DNA from: an uncultured virus (IMG/VR IMGVR_UViG_3300005239_000270)
Taxonomy: Duplodnaviria; Heunggongvirae; Uroviricota; Caudoviricetes
Length of the DNA: 64,000 nt
IMG/VR virus record: IMGVR_UViG_3300005239_000270
Direction: 5' to 3' (one strand)
Shown here: piece after piece, positions 3,541 through 46,408 of the stretch
Layout of the letters: every line of letters starts with the position of its first letter
Position numbering within the stretch: the first letter of the stretch is position 1
The notes under the pieces: generated by a model
The model's input: the letters and a program-made list of their open reading frames with translations, nothing else
Databases searched by the model: none
Told to the model about the DNA's origin: nothing
Made by a program: the position numbers and the translations under genes

Positions 3541-3574
3541 GTAACTTCCCTTTACCCTATTTCAATTGTAACTT

Positions 3575-5371
3575 TTAGAATTGACTTGTAAGCAGAACGT
3601 ATGCTGTTTCTACTTCATCAAGGTTAAGCCCTTGTGCAAGAACATAGACAATTTCCACAGTAGTTATCTCTGATCGTTTTAGTTGATTGATAAATTCATC
3701 ATTTGTTTCACTAATATCTTTTGCTAACTTGGCTTCAAAACTTTGTCGTGATTCGAGTGACGGATAGCCATTAGGTTCTTCTACTCTTGTTTTATTAGCA
3801 AACATCGCTGCAATTACATGCTTACAAATGCGGAAGCTTCCTTTGTACTGCTCTGTTTCCCAGCTTTGAGCAATACTAGCGGCAGTGTTAATTGCAAGCT
3901 TGTCATATGTTGATGAGCCTTGAGCTGTCGGTACTGGTGCTCTTCTCTGTCTATTTAATTTCTTTCCTCGCTCATCGTATTGTTCAGGACTTCGTATTAC
4001 CGCATGCATAAAATCTGGACAGCTACATGCGTAGGTCTCCCCAAACTCAAGTGTAGATCCTGTTGTAAACGTTTGATCTATCCATGGATCAACAGTTATA
4101 TTTATGCGTTGCCATAAAGAATCACCGGGTGCTTCTGGTTTGTGTTTGTAATTGCCATCTGCATCATTATCAACTGATTGAACTGTAAAACTATTATCAG
4201 CTAATATTAGCCAGTTTTCATTTTCTGAAGGAGAGTATAGAGTTAGTGTTGTTTGTACAGGAACTGATGTTAGTTCAATTGTATTTGCAGATACGTCAAA
4301 GTCAATTGATTTAATTTCAAAAGGCAAAACTGAAAAAGCAAGATTAGACACTTCACTATTTACTAGATCTGCAGTTAAATAGTTTCGTCCGAAATAGCGT
4401 TGATACTTATCTTTTTTAAATTCAAATCCACCTTTGAGCTCACTGTTCGTATTCGATGTGTTTAGAATTTCTGTAAATTCATTGATATTAGTCAACGATG
4501 GAGGTAAATCACTTGATGATGTGTCTAGTATTTTAAATACAAATGCCGATCCACTATCTGTCAAGTCAACCGTAAATGTGTCAGAATTATCAGTAAATGT
4601 ATCACTATTTGTAATTGGTCTTATGTTATAGAAATTTGGTACGTATCCTATTTGACCGACTAGTGCTTGTAGATTGCCATTGTTTTCATTCATGAATGTA
4701 GTTGAAGTTACATCTGACAATGGAATAGTGATCGCAATTTTTGTACCTTTAGCTGGTGACTTGCCTTTATATACAGCAGGTTTTTTATCGGGTGTTAGTA
4801 CGTTTAAAACGTTAGCTGATGCCGTTCCATCAGTTATTCGCTCGCCAATTGTTCTCTTAACCAATAGATTGTCAGCACTGAGCGCTGGCTTTGTTACTCG
4901 TATCCATATCTCGTTCCGGGCATATAAATCATTGTTCTGATATCTATCTGAATAGATCTCTTGAATTGTTCCAAGTGAAATATTGTTCTCTGCTGTTACT
5001 TTGCGCCTGAGCGTGTAATGGCTTCTACTGTCCGAATTGCTTGTTGGAAATTTATATCCACTGAATGTTAAAGGCACCTCATTCGTAGTACCTTGATACA
5101 GAATACTGTCAATACTTTTGTAGTCTAAATAAGCTGTCTGGAAGAAATATTCTTGCCCCTTTCTCCAACGAGCCCAATTACTTTCCATGTCGTACTTCTC
5201 TACGACACTTCTACTTACAATAGAACCAAAGCTGCGATTACTTGGATAGTAACCTGCAGCTCCTATCTTTTTACTTTTTGTTATCTTCTGAGCCGGACTT
5301 TTAAAGGCAAAAGATTTGGAATTATTCCAACCGTTTTGCTTTCTGGGCATTAGTACCAGCCGCCTTGGCAA
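3575..5371 (-). CDS. Large protein with C-terminal SWIM-type zinc finger
   Basis: YACSCPDF ... ICKHVIA (CxC...CxH); 598 aa ORF. Confidence 0.55.
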   Translation of the reverse strand: MPRRLVLMPRKQNGWNNSKSFAFKSPAQKITKSKKIGAAGYYPSNRSFGSIVSRSVVEKYDMESNWARWRKGQEYFFQTAYLDYKSIDSILYQGTTNEVPLTFSGYKFPTSNSDSRSHYTLRRKVTAENNISLGTIQEIYSDRYQNNDLYARNEIWIRVTKPALSADNLLVKRTIGERITDGTASANVLNVLTPDKKPAVYKGKSPAKGTKIAITIPLSDVTSTTFMNENNGNLQALVGQIGYVPNFYNIRPITNSDTFTDNSDTFTVDLTDSGSAFVFKILDTSSSDLPPSLTNINEFTEILNTSNTNSELKGGFEFKKDKYQRYFGRNYLTADLVNSEVSNLAFSVLPFEIKSIDFDVSANTIELTSVPVQTTLTLYSPSENENWLILADNSFTVQSVDNDADGNYKHKPEAPGDSLWQRINITVDPWIDQTFTTGSTLEFGETYACSCPDFMHAVIRSPEQYDERGKKLNRQRRAPVPTAQGSSTYDKLAINTAASIAQSWETEQYKGSFRICKHVIAAMFANKTRVEEPNGYPSLESRQSFEAKLAKDISETNDEFINQLKRSEITTVEIVYVLAQGLNLDEVETAYVLLTSQF

Positions 5372-30556: not shown

Positions 30557-31738
30557 CTAATAACTAAAGATTGAGGAATAATCAACTTCAGATTTCTTAC
30601 TCATCGGCTTATATCCACCTTTATTTCCAAACGCTGGTACATCTACTCCGTTATTAATATTAAACGCCGTAGTATCTGGAATACTGCCCTCAATAGGGGT
30701 ACTGATTGTTTCAGTACGCCCGAATGACTGCTTGATTCCAGGCTTTTCAATTGTTGGTGGCGCTTGGGACTCTGCTGGTGTTGCGTTGCCTTTGTTTTTG
30801 GCGATATGTTCAGCTAATAATGCATTTGCTGTAGTTTTACCAGTATTCATGTCCCGAGCTTGATAATCTTCTATGGCAATAGCTTGATCATCGCCAGATT
30901 CGCCACTGATGTAGTACTTGCCACCCGCAAATACTTTTCCAAGAACTGCATCACGCGCTTTTAATCCATTCATAGGGCCATCAGCGTTTAAAAATGCAGC
31001 GCGAGCCATTTGTTGACGGCGTTCAGGGGTCATTTCCCTACCTGCTTCTTGCTCTCTTACTCCATTCAACGCATCAGACAATCTGCCGCTAGTAATTCCA
31101 GTAGCTTGTTGTGCAATTCGCTCGGAACCGCCCTCAATAAAGGGAGCACTGAAGCTTAATGGCGCTTGATCTTGCAAGTTTGTAGAATTTATAGCGTTTC
31201 TACCCCCTTCAGAGTCAAATTTAACGCCGTTATAGCCCCCAATATCTGGAATTTCGTCACCAAAGCCTTGTGTTTGCTTATATGTTGCTGTGTATGGGTT
31301 ACCCATTGTTGTTGGCAATTGTGATCCGCCGAATGGTTGCTGACTTACACCATTAAGCAGGTCGTTAAAAGACCTACTCATGTTGATTCCAGTTTGCACA
31401 ATTCTATTTTTATTTGTCCTTGTGCTCTCTGGAATTGGTCCAGTAATTTCTGGGTCTGGTTTTGGATCAAGCTCTGGATCTGGCTTAGGTTTTTTGGAGG
31501 GTTCGATTACAACTTCATTGATTGGATATGAAGGGTCAGCATCGTACTCATCTTTAAATGTATTAGGGAAGGCACGGACTTTATCTCCACGGAACATATT
31601 CTGAATCGCTACACCAGTTGCTCCTAATGTCTGGCTACCAAAGCCGGGGCGAAGTCTTGAATAGTTCCCATCTGAATCTCTCCAGCGCTTATCTTTTATA
31701 CCAGGTACTGTAAGCCAGCCTTCAGAGTATTGTCCCAT
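30557..31738 (-). CDS. Hypothetical low-complexity late protein
   Basis: 393 aa; TAGAAT 27 nt upstream. Confidence 0.55.
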   Translation of the reverse strand: MGQYSEGWLTVPGIKDKRWRDSDGNYSRLRPGFGSQTLGATGVAIQNMFRGDKVRAFPNTFKDEYDADPSYPINEVVIEPSKKPKPDPELDPKPDPEITGPIPESTRTNKNRIVQTGINMSRSFNDLLNGVSQQPFGGSQLPTTMGNPYTATYKQTQGFGDEIPDIGGYNGVKFDSEGGRNAINSTNLQDQAPLSFSAPFIEGGSERIAQQATGITSGRLSDALNGVREQEAGREMTPERRQQMARAAFLNADGPMNGLKARDAVLGKVFAGGKYYISGESGDDQAIAIEDYQARDMNTGKTTANALLAEHIAKNKGNATPAESQAPPTIEKPGIKQSFGRTETISTPIEGSIPDTTAFNINNGVDVPAFGNKGGYKPMSKKSEVDYSSIFSY

Positions 31739-31771: not shown

Positions 31772-31895
31772 AAAGCTACAATACTACGCTAACTACGCTC
31801 CTATCTAACCCTTTCTAAAAAAATGATAGTAGAGGAGAGCGACCGTGCATTAATAAACAGGTATATAGGAAACTACCGTAGTTGCCGTAGTTTTA
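31772..31895. repeat. CTACG/CGTAG inverted element, copy 1
   Basis: CTACGCTAACTACGCT ... AGAG..GTGCATTA ... TATA ... CGTAGTTGCCGTAGTTTT; related to 43081-43208. Confidence 0.7.
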
Positions 31896-42057: not shown

Positions 42058-42572
42058 ATGGCTGATACATTTAAGTACCTTAATAAAACACAAACAAAAG
42101 AAGATCCAGCTCAAGATTTTCTTAAGTCGTACACTGATCGTTATACACCTGAGCAACAAGCACGCCTTGATGCTAATGGCGGACCAAGCATTATCAATAA
42201 TGATCAATATCAAAATGTAGTTACTAATCAAGAAGAGATGGATGCCACCTCTGACAAGCGCCGTGGTATCGCTAAAGGCGGTGACCATGACCACTACGGC
42301 AACATGTATGAGTCAGGCCAATGGGGCACTGGCGGATCAAGTGCTGATGACCTTGCTACCAAATATAATCTTGACCGAAGTGAAGCTAACTCTCCTAACA
42401 ACCGTGATGTAGACGCAGGTCACATCTGGGGTAAGGATGCTTCTGGTAAAGATGTTTACATCGGTAAAGCAAATATGGACATTGGTAGTAACCAAGGTCT
42501 AATTGCTAGCCATGCCACGCAGCTCTATGGTGACGAAGTTGTTCATAACCAAACTGGTGATAACCTAGATAC
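42058..42572 (+). CDS. Late-type hypothetical protein, truncated by gap
   Basis: TATAAT 26 nt upstream. Confidence 0.5.
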
Positions 42573-42656
42573 NNNNNNNNNNNNNNNNNNNNNNNNNNNN
42601 NNNNNNNNNNNNNNNNNNNNNNNNNNNNNNNNNNNNNNNNNNNNNNNNNNNNNNNN

Positions 42657-43082
42657 TCCGCTTCTCGATTAAATAGAAAAAGCGACTTCTACGACAAGTT
42701 CGGTCAACTTAAAGAAGGCTACAGCTATGACGGTGGCGAAGGCATGGTTGCCATGGGCGAAGGCCAAGTTGGCACCACACGTGGCGCTGGTCCAGACGGC
42801 ATGGTTGGTGGCACTATCAATAAAATGATTTATGGCAAAGCACCCCAAGCATCCCAACAAAAGTCTTCCGCTCCTTCTGCGCCTGAACCCACTCCAAAAC
42901 CTAAAGCAGAGACCTCTCCACCTCCTATTGAATACTCACCTGAGATTCAAGAAGCTAAAGAACGTGTATCTGCTTACAAAAATAAATCAATGTTAGGAGA
43001 AATCTCTGCTCAAATTTACAATTCTCCAGAACAAGCAACAAGTTTCCTCGATAGCAAAAAATATCAGTTTATAGTCAATTAA
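42657..43082 (+). CDS. C-terminal part of a PIEYSPEIQ-family protein
   Basis: Same C-terminal motif as 41580-41999. Confidence 0.5.
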   Translation, partial: SASRLNRKSDFYDKFGQLKEGYSYDGGEGMVAMGEGQVGTTRGAGPDGMVGGTINKMIYGKAPQASQQKSSAPSAPEPTPKPKAETSPPPIEYSPEIQEAKERVSAYKNKSMLGEISAQIYNSPEQATSFLDSKKYQFIVN

Positions 43083-43208
43083 ACTACAAAACCACGAAAA
43101 GCTACGCTAACTACGCTAATTCCCTATATAAGCAATAATTAAATAGAGAGAGGGGGAGTGCATTAAAAAAGAGATATATAAGGGGGAAACGTAGCAAACG
43201 TAGTTTTT
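43081..43208. repeat. CTACG/CGTAG inverted element, copy 2
   Basis: CTACGCTAACTACGCT ... AGAGAG..GTGCATTA ... TATA ... CGTAGCAAACGTAGTTTT. Confidence 0.7.
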
Positions 43209-43408
43209 TCCAAATTTATAGATGCACTAATTTAGTACTCCCCTTGCCGCGCAGTCGAATACAAGCAAAAAACCGCCCAAAATAAAACTACAAACACATA
43301 TGTAGCAACTACTACAAATGAGTCAACCTTAATATATCTTAACCGGAACCAAATTCGGATATCTCGCCCTTTTGGAACCACTTCGTAGGTAAATTGACCA
43401 AACGCTCT

Positions 43409-43765
43409 ATGGAATTGATGCAACGTATCGATGTTCCCGTTGACGCAAAATTTGCTGATGTCCTCAAAGACTACTGCGCTTACTACGGTCTCACTATGGG
43501 CGAATTCATGTATGAAGCTGCTAAACAGCACATACACTCATCGGCAGCGATGTGTGACCTTGCACATGGCATTCTTGAAACACATGGCACTGCTCCTGAC
43601 AAAAGGTCTTCAAAGCATTGCTATGGGTTTAAATGCAGATGCTGTATGCATGAAGTTGCATGTCGCACTGGTCTTTATAAAAATTACTGGGAAATTGCAG
43701 ACGAGCACAAACATCTTCTAAAAGAACAAGATGAGCCATGCTCTTGTGATGAGTACAACCCATGA
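43409..43765 (+). CDS. Putative ribbon-helix-helix regulator with Cx4Cx2Cx5C domain, paralogue A
   Basis: QRIDVPVD..FADVLKDYCAYYGLTMGEFMYE; CYGFKCRCCMHEVACRTGLY. Confidence 0.55.
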   Translation: MELMQRIDVPVDAKFADVLKDYCAYYGLTMGEFMYEAAKQHIHSSAAMCDLAHGILETHGTAPDKRSSKHCYGFKCRCCMHEVACRTGLYKNYWEIADEHKHLLKEQDEPCSCDEYNP

Positions 43766-44079
43766 AAAAAGTACAAGTTCAAATGTCTGATGAATCCCAT
43801 GAAGTCTTAAAAGACTTTGCAAATGCATGGGGCATGACTATGTCAGATGTTATGTACGAATGTGCTCGATGTCATATTCACAAGATGTCTAACGACTGCT
43901 CTTATGTGAAATCAATACTTAAATACAAACAAATCAAGCAAGACCGACGATCATCTAAATCTTGCTATGGACCGTCTTGTTTTGCTTGCAAGTTCAACAC
44001 ATCCTGCCGTACCGGGCTTTACGAAGGAACCTTTGAATTGTCAAAGAAAGCGTCTGCTTTGTATTCAGAATATTCTTAA
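43762..44079 (+). CDS. Putative ribbon-helix-helix regulator with Cx4Cx2Cx5C domain, paralogue B
   Basis: KKVQVQMSDESHEVLKDFANAWGMTMSDVMYE; CYGPSCFACKFNTSCRTGLY. Confidence 0.6.
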   Translation: MKKVQVQMSDESHEVLKDFANAWGMTMSDVMYECARCHIHKMSNDCSYVKSILKYKQIKQDRRSSKSCYGPSCFACKFNTSCRTGLYEGTFELSKKASALYSEYS

Positions 44080-44235
44080 TGTTTCTGTTGATACACTTTA
44101 CAACACTTAATTGGTTTCACCAGTACATGCTTTGACGATGTAATTAGCTGAGTATTAGTCATAGTTAATTGCGCCCTAACGGGCGCTTTATTCGTTTATG
44201 CCCTCTTTGAGGGTTGTCCTATATATGTCAAATCA

Positions 44236-45227
44236 ATGCCTGCTAATTTCACATCCGGCTGGCTCGGCAACGGCGAACGTGCGTGGCACGGAATGGGAGT
44301 CGTCACAGATGGCACCCTGCCAGCGCGAGAAGCGTTTGAAACAGCGAACGCCCTCTTCACCGTCGAGAAGCGAGAGTTGCAACTCCCAACTCACGTCGAA
44401 TCCCAAGTCGATACCGGATACTTACCTGGTCGAGTTATCTATCAACCGTCAGGTGCATTCGGACTCGTCCGCACTGACACCCAAGACTTGCTTGGCATCG
44501 TCAGTAAGCAGTACGAAATCGTGCCAAACGAATCGCTCTTACGCATGGCGGAGTTCATCCGCGAAGAGGTTGACATGGACACCGTCGTCGTTCTATCAGA
44601 TGGTGGCAAAGTCTGCTTTACCGCCACACTCCGTGGTGCGACGCAGGACATCGTCCGTGGTGACACAGTCAAACGCCGCATCGTTGGCTTCTTAGGTCAC
44701 GACGGTAAGACTGGCTGTGGTGCAATGTTCACCAACGTCCGCGTTGTGTGTACTAATACTCTTGCTGCAGCTATGTCTTCAGCCACTGCGAAGGTCAGCA
44801 TCCGTCACAAGACTGGTGCTAACGACAACTTCGATCAGCTGATCACGTCTATCGATACTGCACGTGAGACATTCAATAATGAAGTCGAACTATTCCGCAG
44901 TTTGCTGATACTCCTATCGAGCAAGGTGACTTCCGTGAACTCCTAGAGCGTGTCTACGCCAGTGAGATTCCTGAAGGTAAGCAGATCGATGACTTACGTA
45001 AGTATCCCAAGCTACGCCGTGCTTATACCGGTGGCCTTGGTGCTCGTGAGTTTGCTCCCTATACCATGTGGTCTGCTGTCAATGCAATCACTGAGGTAGA
45101 GACAAGCACACAGACTGGCACTCGTGCTCAGCAACGACGTCAGTTTGCCAAAGCTAATTTCGGTAGCGGTTTACTTACAAGTAAGCGAGCCATTCAAGAA
45201 GCTGAAGCTATGCTCTCGCTTGTCTAA
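44236..45227 (+). CDS. DUF932-family phage/plasmid protein, frameshift near 44900
   Basis: AWHGMG, LGIVSKQYEIVPN, GHDGKTG, NVRVVCTNTL, IRH; the alternate frame carries TMWSAVNAITE to stop 45227. Confidence 0.8.
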
Positions 45228-45943: not shown

Positions 45944-46114
45944 ATGTCAAGAACTTACAGACGTACTACTGAGTCCAGCACTGGACTTAGGCACCCACAT
46001 ACAATGAATGAACGTCGTCAGCTAAACGGTCTACAAGCAGATGCTCGACTACATCAAATTAATATTTCTCCTGTTAATCGTCTATCTCGTCATATTCCTA
46101 CAGACTTTGACGAC
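45944..46114 (+). CDS. Small basic protein MSRTYRR..., truncated by gap
   Basis: GGAG RBS; ORF runs into an N-gap. Confidence 0.5.
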
Positions 46115-46134
46115 NNNNNNNNNNNNNNNNNNNN

Positions 46135-46408
46135 GAAGACTCACTCCATTCGGACCTACACTGAAACTTTCGCCTGGACCAAAGTGCATAGGGTTGCTAC
46201 TGTCATCAAAAGTAGCGCCCTGTCCTGTTAATAAACCTTCAACTTGTCTTAGATCACTTGGAGCATTTGCATATGGGTCTATTACACCCTGACCTCTTGG
46301 CCCTGCTAAACGACCTCTAAAGTCTTTATCAGCTTGCTGATCGATATAGTTAGGATTATTCGGGTAAAATTCTCTTCTAGGACCTTTACCAAATCTAAAA
46401 CTATCCAT
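46135..46408 (-). CDS. Late-type protein (RLAG motif), truncated by gap
   Basis: TAAAAT 24 nt upstream. Confidence 0.5.

Follow-up and report, generated by a model that had tools for sequence, protein, structure and literature searches.

A 64,000-nucleotide (nt) stretch of an uncultured marine cyanophage-like caudoviricete (IMG/VR record IMGVR_UViG_3300005239_000270; hereafter, the window) carries two overlapping genes, ORF1 and ORF2 (ORF, open reading frame), whose products are paralogs of a family that, judged by sequence, is new. We consider it reasonably probable that both products are small DNA-binding regulators, in which a domain of the ribbon-helix-helix (RHH) type is joined to a metal-binding module of four cysteines (Cys4), and that they act on a repeat element upstream of the gene pair (Table 1). 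Members of the family are found in a marine cyanophage lineage resembling Synechococcus phage S-EIVl and in other phage contigs, and the chromosomes of some marine Synechococcus also have one. Pfam, NCBIfam, and PHROGs contain no family that joins an RHH domain to a compact, invariant Cys4 module, and none was found in the literature searched, which was covered in part.

Table 1. Positions of the gene pair and of associated features in the window (nucleotide 1 is the first of the window).
Feature	Position	Strand	Evidence
ORF1, predicted RHH + Cx4Cx2Cx5C protein	43394..43765	+	15 orthologs, 64–91 per cent identity
ORF2, paralogous predicted RHH + Cx4Cx2Cx5C protein, 105 amino acids	43762..44079	+	AlphaFold2 model, pLDDT 96.1; RHH structure matches
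Imperfect palindrome: CTACG repeats in 9-nt phase on the left, inverted CGTAG on the right, core GTGCATTAAAAAAGAGATATATA	43081..43208		Repeat scan; conservation
Second palindromic CTACG copy	31772..31895		Repeat scan
Inverted pair CTACA-N8-TGTAG followed by CTACTAC, ~100–130 nt upstream of ORF1	43286..43316		Sequence
Terminator-like GC hairpin with T-rich tail, after ORF2	44171..44196 (hairpin 44171–44186)	+	Hairpin scan

The ATG start codon of ORF2 (43762) overlaps the TGA stop codon of ORF1 (43763–43765) as ATGA. The two proteins align without gaps, with 38 of 103 residues identical (37 per cent; BLASTP E-value = 7e-25), and a likeness so far beyond chance identifies them as paralogs. An earlier, sequence-only reading of the window had described two translationally coupled genes that share the motifs HIH, D(K/R)RSSK, and CYGxxCxxCxxxxxCRTGLY. 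Both elements of that description hold, as the two frames and their overlap are present on the plus strand, and HIH, DKRSSK or DRRSSK, and CYGxxCxxCxxxxxCRTGLY are common to both products. The start of ORF1 is uncertain: the sequence-only reading took the TTG at 43394 (123 amino acids), most homologs start at MQRID, which corresponds to the ATG at 43418 (115 amino acids), and the ATG at 43409 would give a protein of 118 amino acids. Numbered from 43418, residues C20, C46, C68, C73, C75, C76, and C82 are invariant among ORF1 orthologs (alignment A2); C20 and C75 are extra invariant cysteines of ORF1, which also has a cysteine-containing tail. An ORF of 101 amino acids on the minus strand (43232–43537) overlaps ORF1 and was rejected as spurious, since homologs back only the plus-strand frames. 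The hairpin that follows ORF2, if real, would make the pair a bicistronic unit; the scan of the region found one such site against 1.2 expected from shuffled sequences, a number that is not statistically distinguished from chance.

The N-terminal segment of approximately 45 residues very likely has an RHH fold: no single score is strong, and the structure model, the structure matches, and the profile matches to PDB sequences and Pfam families agree with the strand–helix–helix pattern that had been noticed in the sequence. Specifically, AlphaFold2 (AF2), when supplied with a 79-row alignment of diverse family members, predicts ORF2 with a mean predicted local distance difference test score (pLDDT) of 96.1 and a predicted TM-score (pTM) of 0.83. 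The model consists of an extended segment (residues 1–9), helices at residues 10–22, 27–42, and 47–55, and short helices around the cysteines. In a wide VIA-align search of 48,161 chains with this model, made independently of Foldseek, 92 chains were matched at Z ≥ 2 and none at Z ≥ 5, and RHH domains lead the list. The top match is PutA (2rbf_A; Z = 4.6; root-mean-square deviation [rmsd] of 1.1 Å over 44 of 44 residues), and further matches include TacA, CopA-SO, StnY, MazE9, NikR, VapB12, AmrZ, Arc, omega, and MetJ; the match rows span residues 1–57 of the model only. The top rows of the Foldseek search are likewise almost all RHH proteins, with local rmsd of 0.8–1.5 Å over 32–38 columns for Arc, AtaR, and StnY. 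Foldseek found nothing at E ≤ 1e-3 in PDB or BFVD, and in BFVD there is no full-length structural analog, the matches being confined to the RHH part.

Sequence profiles point the same way. Searched against PDB sequences at E ≤ 10, the family profile has four matches, all of them to RHH proteins: ParG (E-value = 0.0037), SvtR/56B (0.014), ParD (0.037), and AvtR (0.18). When 79 diverse members were scanned against Pfam, six of the seven families matched were RHH families, all weakly and with ParD as the best (E-value = 1e-5); the matches are to ParD (two members), DUF6290 (three), NikA-like (two), FitA-like (two), 56B (one), and ParG (one). RHH proteins are characterized by a first strand of alternating polar and hydrophobic residues and by a G-x-S/T/N turn that joins the two helices. 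The first strand alternates in this manner in both ORF2 (KKVQVQM) and ORF1 (QRIDVPV), and the inter-helix turn has the form G-(M/L)-T, in which the threonine is invariant across both paralog families.

The C-terminal part of each protein contains four cysteines with 4-2-5 spacing (Cx4Cx2Cx5C). Invariance of these cysteines within alignment A4 is by construction, because its members were chosen for the presence of the motif; the unbiased count is that over 113 cluster representatives (P0037–P0149). The profile match passes the fourth cysteine in 81 of these representatives, 78 of which have the exact Cx4Cx2Cx5C spacing and three of which have one extra spacer residue. Five more representatives, whose match ends at profile position 84–85, also carry Cx4Cx2Cx5C. 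In total, 86 relatives reach the module (83 with exact spacing, three off by one residue), and not one of them lacks a cysteine, so the conservation in homologs that the sequence-only reading had called for is present. The remaining 27 representatives stop before the module; each is a fragment, a frameshifted read, or a protein that is truly short and RHH-only. A fifth cysteine, located at the start of helix 3, and residues D61, K66, and G85 are invariant or at least 90 per cent conserved in the aligned sets.

The cofactor of the module, if there is one, is suggested by its spacing. In FNR, WhiB, endonuclease III, and AddB/Cas4, Cx2Cx5C ligates an iron–sulfur (Fe–S) cluster, and plant-type ferredoxins use Cx4Cx2C for theirs. 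The complete spacing is in print for two Fe–S proteins, as far as the available parts of the sources go. FeoC of Escherichia coli carries 56-CX4CX2CX5C-70, and replacement of its two central cysteines by serine gives a phenotype like that of a feoC deletion (PMC8749426); in FeoC, the cysteine-rich wing is the site of an O2-sensitive [4Fe-4S] cluster, and a role as a sensor has been proposed for the protein. The conserved motif of NifQ has the same Cx4Cx2Cx5C spacing (PMC4085339), and NifQ is an Fe–S molybdoprotein (PMC11605450). The parallel with FeoC and NifQ is one of motif and not of homology, yet the exact spacing makes an Fe–S cofactor plausible. The degenerate pattern used to scan genome contigs (see below) also caught a radical-SAM/SPASM protein with Cx4Cx2Cx5Cx3C. 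Known zinc families are less likely, as the module has a single CxxC and no zinc-finger or zinc-ribbon family of Pfam matches it at E ≤ 10. Neither the whole proteins nor their C-terminal parts match the nickel-binding NikR_C domain of Pfam, and the modeled C-terminus consists of short helices. From the spacing, we would put an Fe–S cluster at about an even chance, structural zinc at appreciably less, and any other cofactor as quite improbable. The sequence-only reading had proposed an Fe–S- or Zn-binding transcription factor, and this proposal has fared unevenly: the exact spacing has its printed precedents, and the C-terminal parts match no Pfam family.

Both the size of the family and the arrangement of its genes could be traced beyond the window. 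Word-indexed searches recovered 21 orthologs of ORF2 and 15 of ORF1, all unnamed and all metagenomic. A profile of both ortholog sets, searched against 1.84 billion cluster representatives, retrieved 114 proteins at E ≤ 1e-3, 90 of them at E ≤ 1e-10; the family thus comprises 114 clusters at 50 per cent identity, and nearly all members are 60–175 residues long. No model of Pfam, NCBIfam, or PHROGs is matched above its cut-off (nothing in PHROGs falls below an E-value of 0.04), and with the whole of ORF2 the ESM Atlas returned only unnamed, mostly cyanobacterial clusters and low-scoring clusters with RHH names; the C-terminal part had no usable match there. Viral relatives were located from alignment A1, and relatives in genome contigs by a degenerate DNA pattern; the loci are labeled L001 onward.

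In all seven distinct related contigs that carry both orthologs (L001–L009), the two genes stand in tandem and the 4-nt overlap is kept; in this count, L001 and L005 are one place, L002 and L003 share a contig, and the proteins of L008 and L009 are identical. Other phage contigs differ in the arrangement. L010 has two full-length family members 134 nt apart, L013 has a single member, and in L011, L012, and L014, a short RHH-only protein is followed by a full-length ORF2-like member. The position of the genes in the latter three contigs matches that in the window, in the order HAD phosphatase, other genes, the pair, DUF932, DPBB, and psbA (Pfam assignments for L011 and L014). The contigs L002 and L003 are parts of one 106-kb IMG/VR contig in which the ORF1/ORF2 locus is present twice, ~81.35 kb apart, which suggests a concatemer or a terminal duplication of a genome of ~81 kb.

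The pattern scan of genome contigs gave 40 loci, of which 15 have a family-profile match at E ≤ 0.01 and 11 are real members. Seven of the 11 are in genomes of marine Synechococcus or Parasynechococcus, two of these copies being split into two ORFs, and an eighth (L055), split and close to phage ORF2, sits on a 25-kb contig that was binned as Synechococcus. The other three are on contigs binned to other phyla, two of which look phage- or plasmid-like; L053 has a T7-type RNA polymerase and a terminase, and L044 has a primase-polymerase. Among 201 sampled picocyanobacterial genomes, the gene is present in eight, always in one copy, and the host copies are located near genes for a class II ribonucleotide reductase (RNR), a short-chain dehydrogenase/reductase (SDR), and a LOG-like protein.

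Some additional features accompany the copies in genome contigs. A near-palindrome, ATGCA-N5/6-(T)GCAT, lies ~40–60 nt upstream of the host family gene in L016, L028, and L049 (and, weakly, in L020), and is a possible operator of the host homolog. In L020 (2818–3054, minus strand) and L049 (3243–3479, minus strand), a 78-amino-acid ORF is found on the opposite strand ~650 nt upstream of the host family gene; it matches the family profile marginally (E-value = 0.008), has no Pfam match, and might encode a second small RHH-like protein. In L044, three direct copies and one inverted copy of CAATGTGTCA(C), at 3560–3800, precede the family gene on the primase-polymerase-bearing contig, and they may be iterons or operator boxes.

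The palindromic element that we regard as the candidate operator or promoter of the pair lies 186–210 nt upstream of ORF1, where the sequence-only reading had also placed a CTACG element. CTACGN4CTACG with at most one mismatch occurs nine times in the window against 1.4 expected; the four occurrences without a mismatch form the arms of this element and of the 31.8-kb copy. Between the repeat arms lies the A/T-rich and strongly conserved core, GTGCATTAAAAAAGAGATATATA(A/G)GG. Conservation of the element upstream of the pair extends to L001, L002, L004, L006–L008, L011, L012, and L014; in the sublineage with the replaced first gene, the boxes are CCACG/CGTGG instead of CTACG. In L010, three tandem AACCACAC repeats abut the start codon of the first family gene. 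This setting would fit an autoregulated RHH operator, and the CTACA/TGTAG inverted pair nearer to ORF1 is a possible second binding site. The 31.8-kb copy is situated just past the last leftward gene of the structural block (30557–31738, minus strand), where the genes turn mostly rightward, and the element might serve as an operator-bearing pair of divergent promoters or as an origin. Two further blocks are conserved in the leader (43240–43400; alignment A8 of L001–L008), GCAAAAAA(A/C)C at ~150 nt and T(A/T)ACCGAG at ~75 nt upstream of the ORF1 start. A search of positions 42900–44300 against Rfam gave no family at E ≤ 1, and the leader blocks are unmatched.

We infer the following mode of action. 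The N-terminal strands of two chains would come together as a ribbon to read the major groove of DNA, as in other RHH proteins, and the polar faces of the strands (K3/Q5/Q7 in ORF2 and R3/D5/P7 in ORF1) would give specificity. The four invariant cysteines would hold a metal cofactor, most likely an Fe–S cluster and less likely structural zinc, and the module with its cofactor would govern oligomerization or DNA affinity. The proteins would probably repress or tune transcription from the 9-nt-phased CTACG element and its copy at 31.8 kb. Any link to the redox or light state of the host is speculation. A more far-reaching version, which we regard as rather improbable, is that the family founds a class of Fe–S-dependent RHH transcription factors in marine Synechococcus and their phages. 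In that version, an asymmetric heterodimer would bind the non-palindromic CTACG boxes flanking the promoter core, and loss or oxidation of the cluster (in response to O2, to reactive oxygen species, or to iron status, which each track photosynthetic activity) would switch the rightward early block, including psbA, and so couple phage expression to host redox and light.

In the complex prediction, ORF1 and ORF2 reach an interface score (ipSAE) of 0.53 (runs of 0.53, 0.53, and 0.63), and the best of three controls has 0.00; the runs agree in at least 65 per cent of contacts, and partner pLDDT is at least 52. The mark that this prediction passes is reached by 116 of 157 solved complexes and by two of 215 mismatched pairs, although at ipSAE ≤ 0.60 it is reached by only 18 of the 157 solved complexes and by both passing mismatches. 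Additionally, close paralogs can score through family likeness. Of the heterodimer proposed by the sequence-only reading, what stands is a predicted complex that passes the mark with weak support; the host genes are single-copy, and we regard a heterodimer as somewhat less likely than not. It comes close to an even prospect that there is no heterodimer and that each protein forms its own homodimer or tetramer on its own operator, as in a two-step circuit, translational coupling serving only to equalize dosage. Phage P22, for comparison, has two RHH repressors, Arc and Mnt. The first strands of ORF1 and ORF2 differ, which implies different DNA specificities, and because host genomes are single-copy, homo-oligomers must also work, as they would for the single gene of L013. 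In L011, L012, and L014, moreover, the first gene is replaced by one for an RHH-only protein of unrelated length, and the ORF2-like gene stays. Set against separate homo-oligomers are the retention of the 4-nt overlap in every related contig with both orthologs and the passing complex score, with its controls at zero.

Two other alternatives were considered. The Cys4 module may be a structural zinc knuckle that stabilizes the fold or joins dimers into a tetramer, so that the proteins would be constitutive early repressors with no role in sensing. The C-terminal domains of Mnt and NikR do mediate tetramerization between dimers on adjacent boxes, four invariant cysteines would fit a tetrahedral zinc site equally well, and AF2 folds the module confidently without a cofactor. 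No homology to any Fe–S family was found in Pfam at E ≤ 10, and among the BFVD rows is a "putative zinc finger protein" from an archaeal virus, similar in length, at a non-significant E-value of 0.55. We nevertheless judge this alternative unlikely, if well short of remote. Zinc ribbons typically have two CxxC knuckles, whereas here one CxxC is flanked by single cysteines at −5 and +6; the exact spacing is in print for Fe–S binders, in the parts of those sources available, and no zinc site with Cx4Cx2Cx5C was found in the partly covered literature. Very unlikely, in our view, is that the proteins are not transcription regulators at all and instead bind another protein as antitoxins do, assist partition or packaging in the manner of ParG, or serve replication by binding an origin at an iteron-like CTACG element. 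Antitoxins and the partition protein ParG account for many of the best RHH matches, and iteron-like repeats surround the A/T-rich core of the element, which is present twice. However, no gene for a toxin, ParA, or a replication initiator adjoins the phage pair, and the host copies are located among housekeeping genes (class II RNR, SDR, and LOG-like) with no toxin partner. A type II RHH antitoxin (ParD/RelB/CopA/TacA) was rejected because no toxin gene is adjacent in phages or hosts.

A number of results weigh against the interpretation of the pair as RHH regulators with a metal module. The first AF2 run (ORF1 with a 37-row alignment) reached a pLDDT of only 65.7, with the cysteine region under 50. 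By score, the structure matches are weak throughout (Foldseek E > 0.4, VIA-align Z < 5), as is usual for a domain of only 45 residues. At least 68 of the 79 diverse members have no RHH family match at E ≤ 0.01, and matches to curated RHH models all stay below the cut-offs; DUF6290 has an E-value of 0.034 (14.8 bits against a cut-off of 27), and the RelB antitoxin model one of 0.025 (14.9 bits against 50). Searched with the C-terminal segments of ORF1 and ORF2, of a host copy, and of a member in L010 (L010b), Pfam gave no match at E ≤ 10, nor did the whole proteins match the FeoC or NifQ families; no homology of the module could be detected with FeoC, NifQ, WhiB, SPASM, or any other family in Pfam. 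The whole case for an Fe–S cluster is made by the spacing of the cysteines, and where phage DNA-binding proteins have a small Cys4 module, it often binds zinc. It is equally possible that the CTACG element is an origin of replication or a promoter that serves some other factor. Natural RHH heterodimers are, to our knowledge, rare, and the single copies in hosts and L013 mean that the family does not require one. Finally, S-EIVl has no member of the ORF1/ORF2 family.

Among known systems, the closest in fold are the RHH repressors and related proteins (Arc/Mnt, CopG, MetJ, omega, ParG, PutA, and antitoxins), which have the same strand–helix–helix of ~45 residues, the G-x-T turn, and the alternating strand; ORF1 and ORF2 are likewise small genes, here in a phage and adjoining repeated short DNA boxes. 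Unlike these, ORF1 and ORF2 have an extra third helix and a Cys4 module, which no matched structure covers. NikR resembles them in architecture, with an RHH domain followed by a metal-binding C-terminal domain that possibly controls DNA binding, and NikR chains match through the RHH part. The C-terminal domain of NikR, however, is a beta-alpha-beta domain that binds nickel through His/Cys ligands and forms a tetramer, whereas the modeled region here is a ~45-residue module of short helices with four cysteines and does not match NikR_C. In FNR, WhiB/Wbl (including phage-encoded WhiB), and the compact-motif SoxR, Cx2Cx5C belongs to the ligand set of a cluster that switches binding to DNA or a partner; these regulators have other DNA-binding folds (CRP-type helix-turn-helix, Wbl, and MerR) and are not homologous. 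According to the parts of the sources available, FeoC of E. coli and Klebsiella pneumoniae is also a small protein with a DNA-binding-type fold and the identical CX4CX2CX5C near its C terminus. It differs in being a winged-helix protein with the cysteine motif in a disordered wing, in having no detectable sequence similarity to ORF1 and ORF2, and in acting on FeoB, an action on DNA not being known. No Fe–S regulator of the RHH class was found in the literature searched, and the available parts of PMC3877281 and PMC10272220 describe none.

Two cyanobacterial RHH proteins were compared as well. A 55-amino-acid host RHH gene in L072 (3982–4149, minus strand), L073 (3996–4166, minus strand), and L075 (4012–4179, plus strand) matches a profile of the short, Cys-less relatives (per-genome E-value of about 1e-6). 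It follows two AraC-type genes and, in L072 and L073, precedes a HEAT/PBS-lyase gene. The gene order fciA-fciB-fciC-mpeZ is that of the CA4-A chromatic-acclimation island (PMC3877281, as far as available), and the RHH gene matched by the short RHH-only relatives has the place of fciC in that order in marine Synechococcus. FciC is without the third helix and the cysteine module, the match covers only profile positions 1–42, and it may reflect nothing beyond a general resemblance among RHH proteins. TrcR, a cyanobacterial RHH repressor, was discarded as a relative: nothing ties it to the family, and "cysteine" is absent from the accessible part of the TrcR paper.

RHH regulators and regulators that depend on Fe–S clusters or other metals are each well known, and it is their combination that appears to be new. 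Cofactor-dependent regulation is plausible, with exact-motif precedents in print, and the pair may act as a gene switch of a novel type that depends on metal or redox state; if the metal is structural zinc, the family would be a routine new family of repressors. The family is not rare, and it lives in an almost unstudied lineage of psbA-carrying marine cyanophages. It touches the open question of how cyanophages time gene expression against the light-driven physiology of the host, and a small, easily expressed pair of proteins with a defined candidate operator makes one possible connection directly testable.

As for the genomic setting, genes of the window run leftward to ~31.7 kb, a terminase-like gene among them, and mostly rightward beyond that point. 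The rightward genes include tRNA-Asp, HAD phosphatase, DUF932, a DPBB protein, psbA, a PD-(D/E)XK nuclease, Dam, ribonucleotide reductase, and ThyX; the phage neighbors of the pair are the DUF932 gene, the DPBB gene, and psbA. By terminase, S-EIVl is the closest cultured phage (52 per cent identity over 53 per cent of the query). In the GenBank phage collection, positions 43000–44200 have no DNA match, and neither ORF1 nor a distant relative (P0048) has a tblastn match. The related IMG/VR contigs are 67–85 kb long, except for two shorter ones (24 and 33 kb) and the one of 106 kb. Sequencing runs labeled as marine or seawater metagenome contain the stretch, and five runs from two studies cover at least half of the sampled words; no RNA run is listed for the stretch.

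Several genes around the pair are interrupted or shortened in the window. The DUF932 gene 3′ of the pair (44236–45227) is split over two reading frames: its residues 1–223 (44236–44946) align to residues 19–234 of the 334-amino-acid ortholog in L001 with 70 per cent identity, and residues 283–333 of that ortholog align to a separate ORF in a different frame (45066–45227). By its sequence, this split reads as a frameshift, a pseudogene, or an assembly error. Runs of N at ~42590–42660 and ~46115–46140, where bases are masked or withheld, interrupt ORFs 42058–42672 and 45944–46231, and the psbA ORF of the window has 292 amino acids against 362 in relatives. In L001, a gene for a 97-amino-acid protein that contains C-x4-C-x2-C (2384–2677) is found ~2 kb upstream of the pair, and its translation looks like a plant-type [2Fe-2S] ferredoxin.

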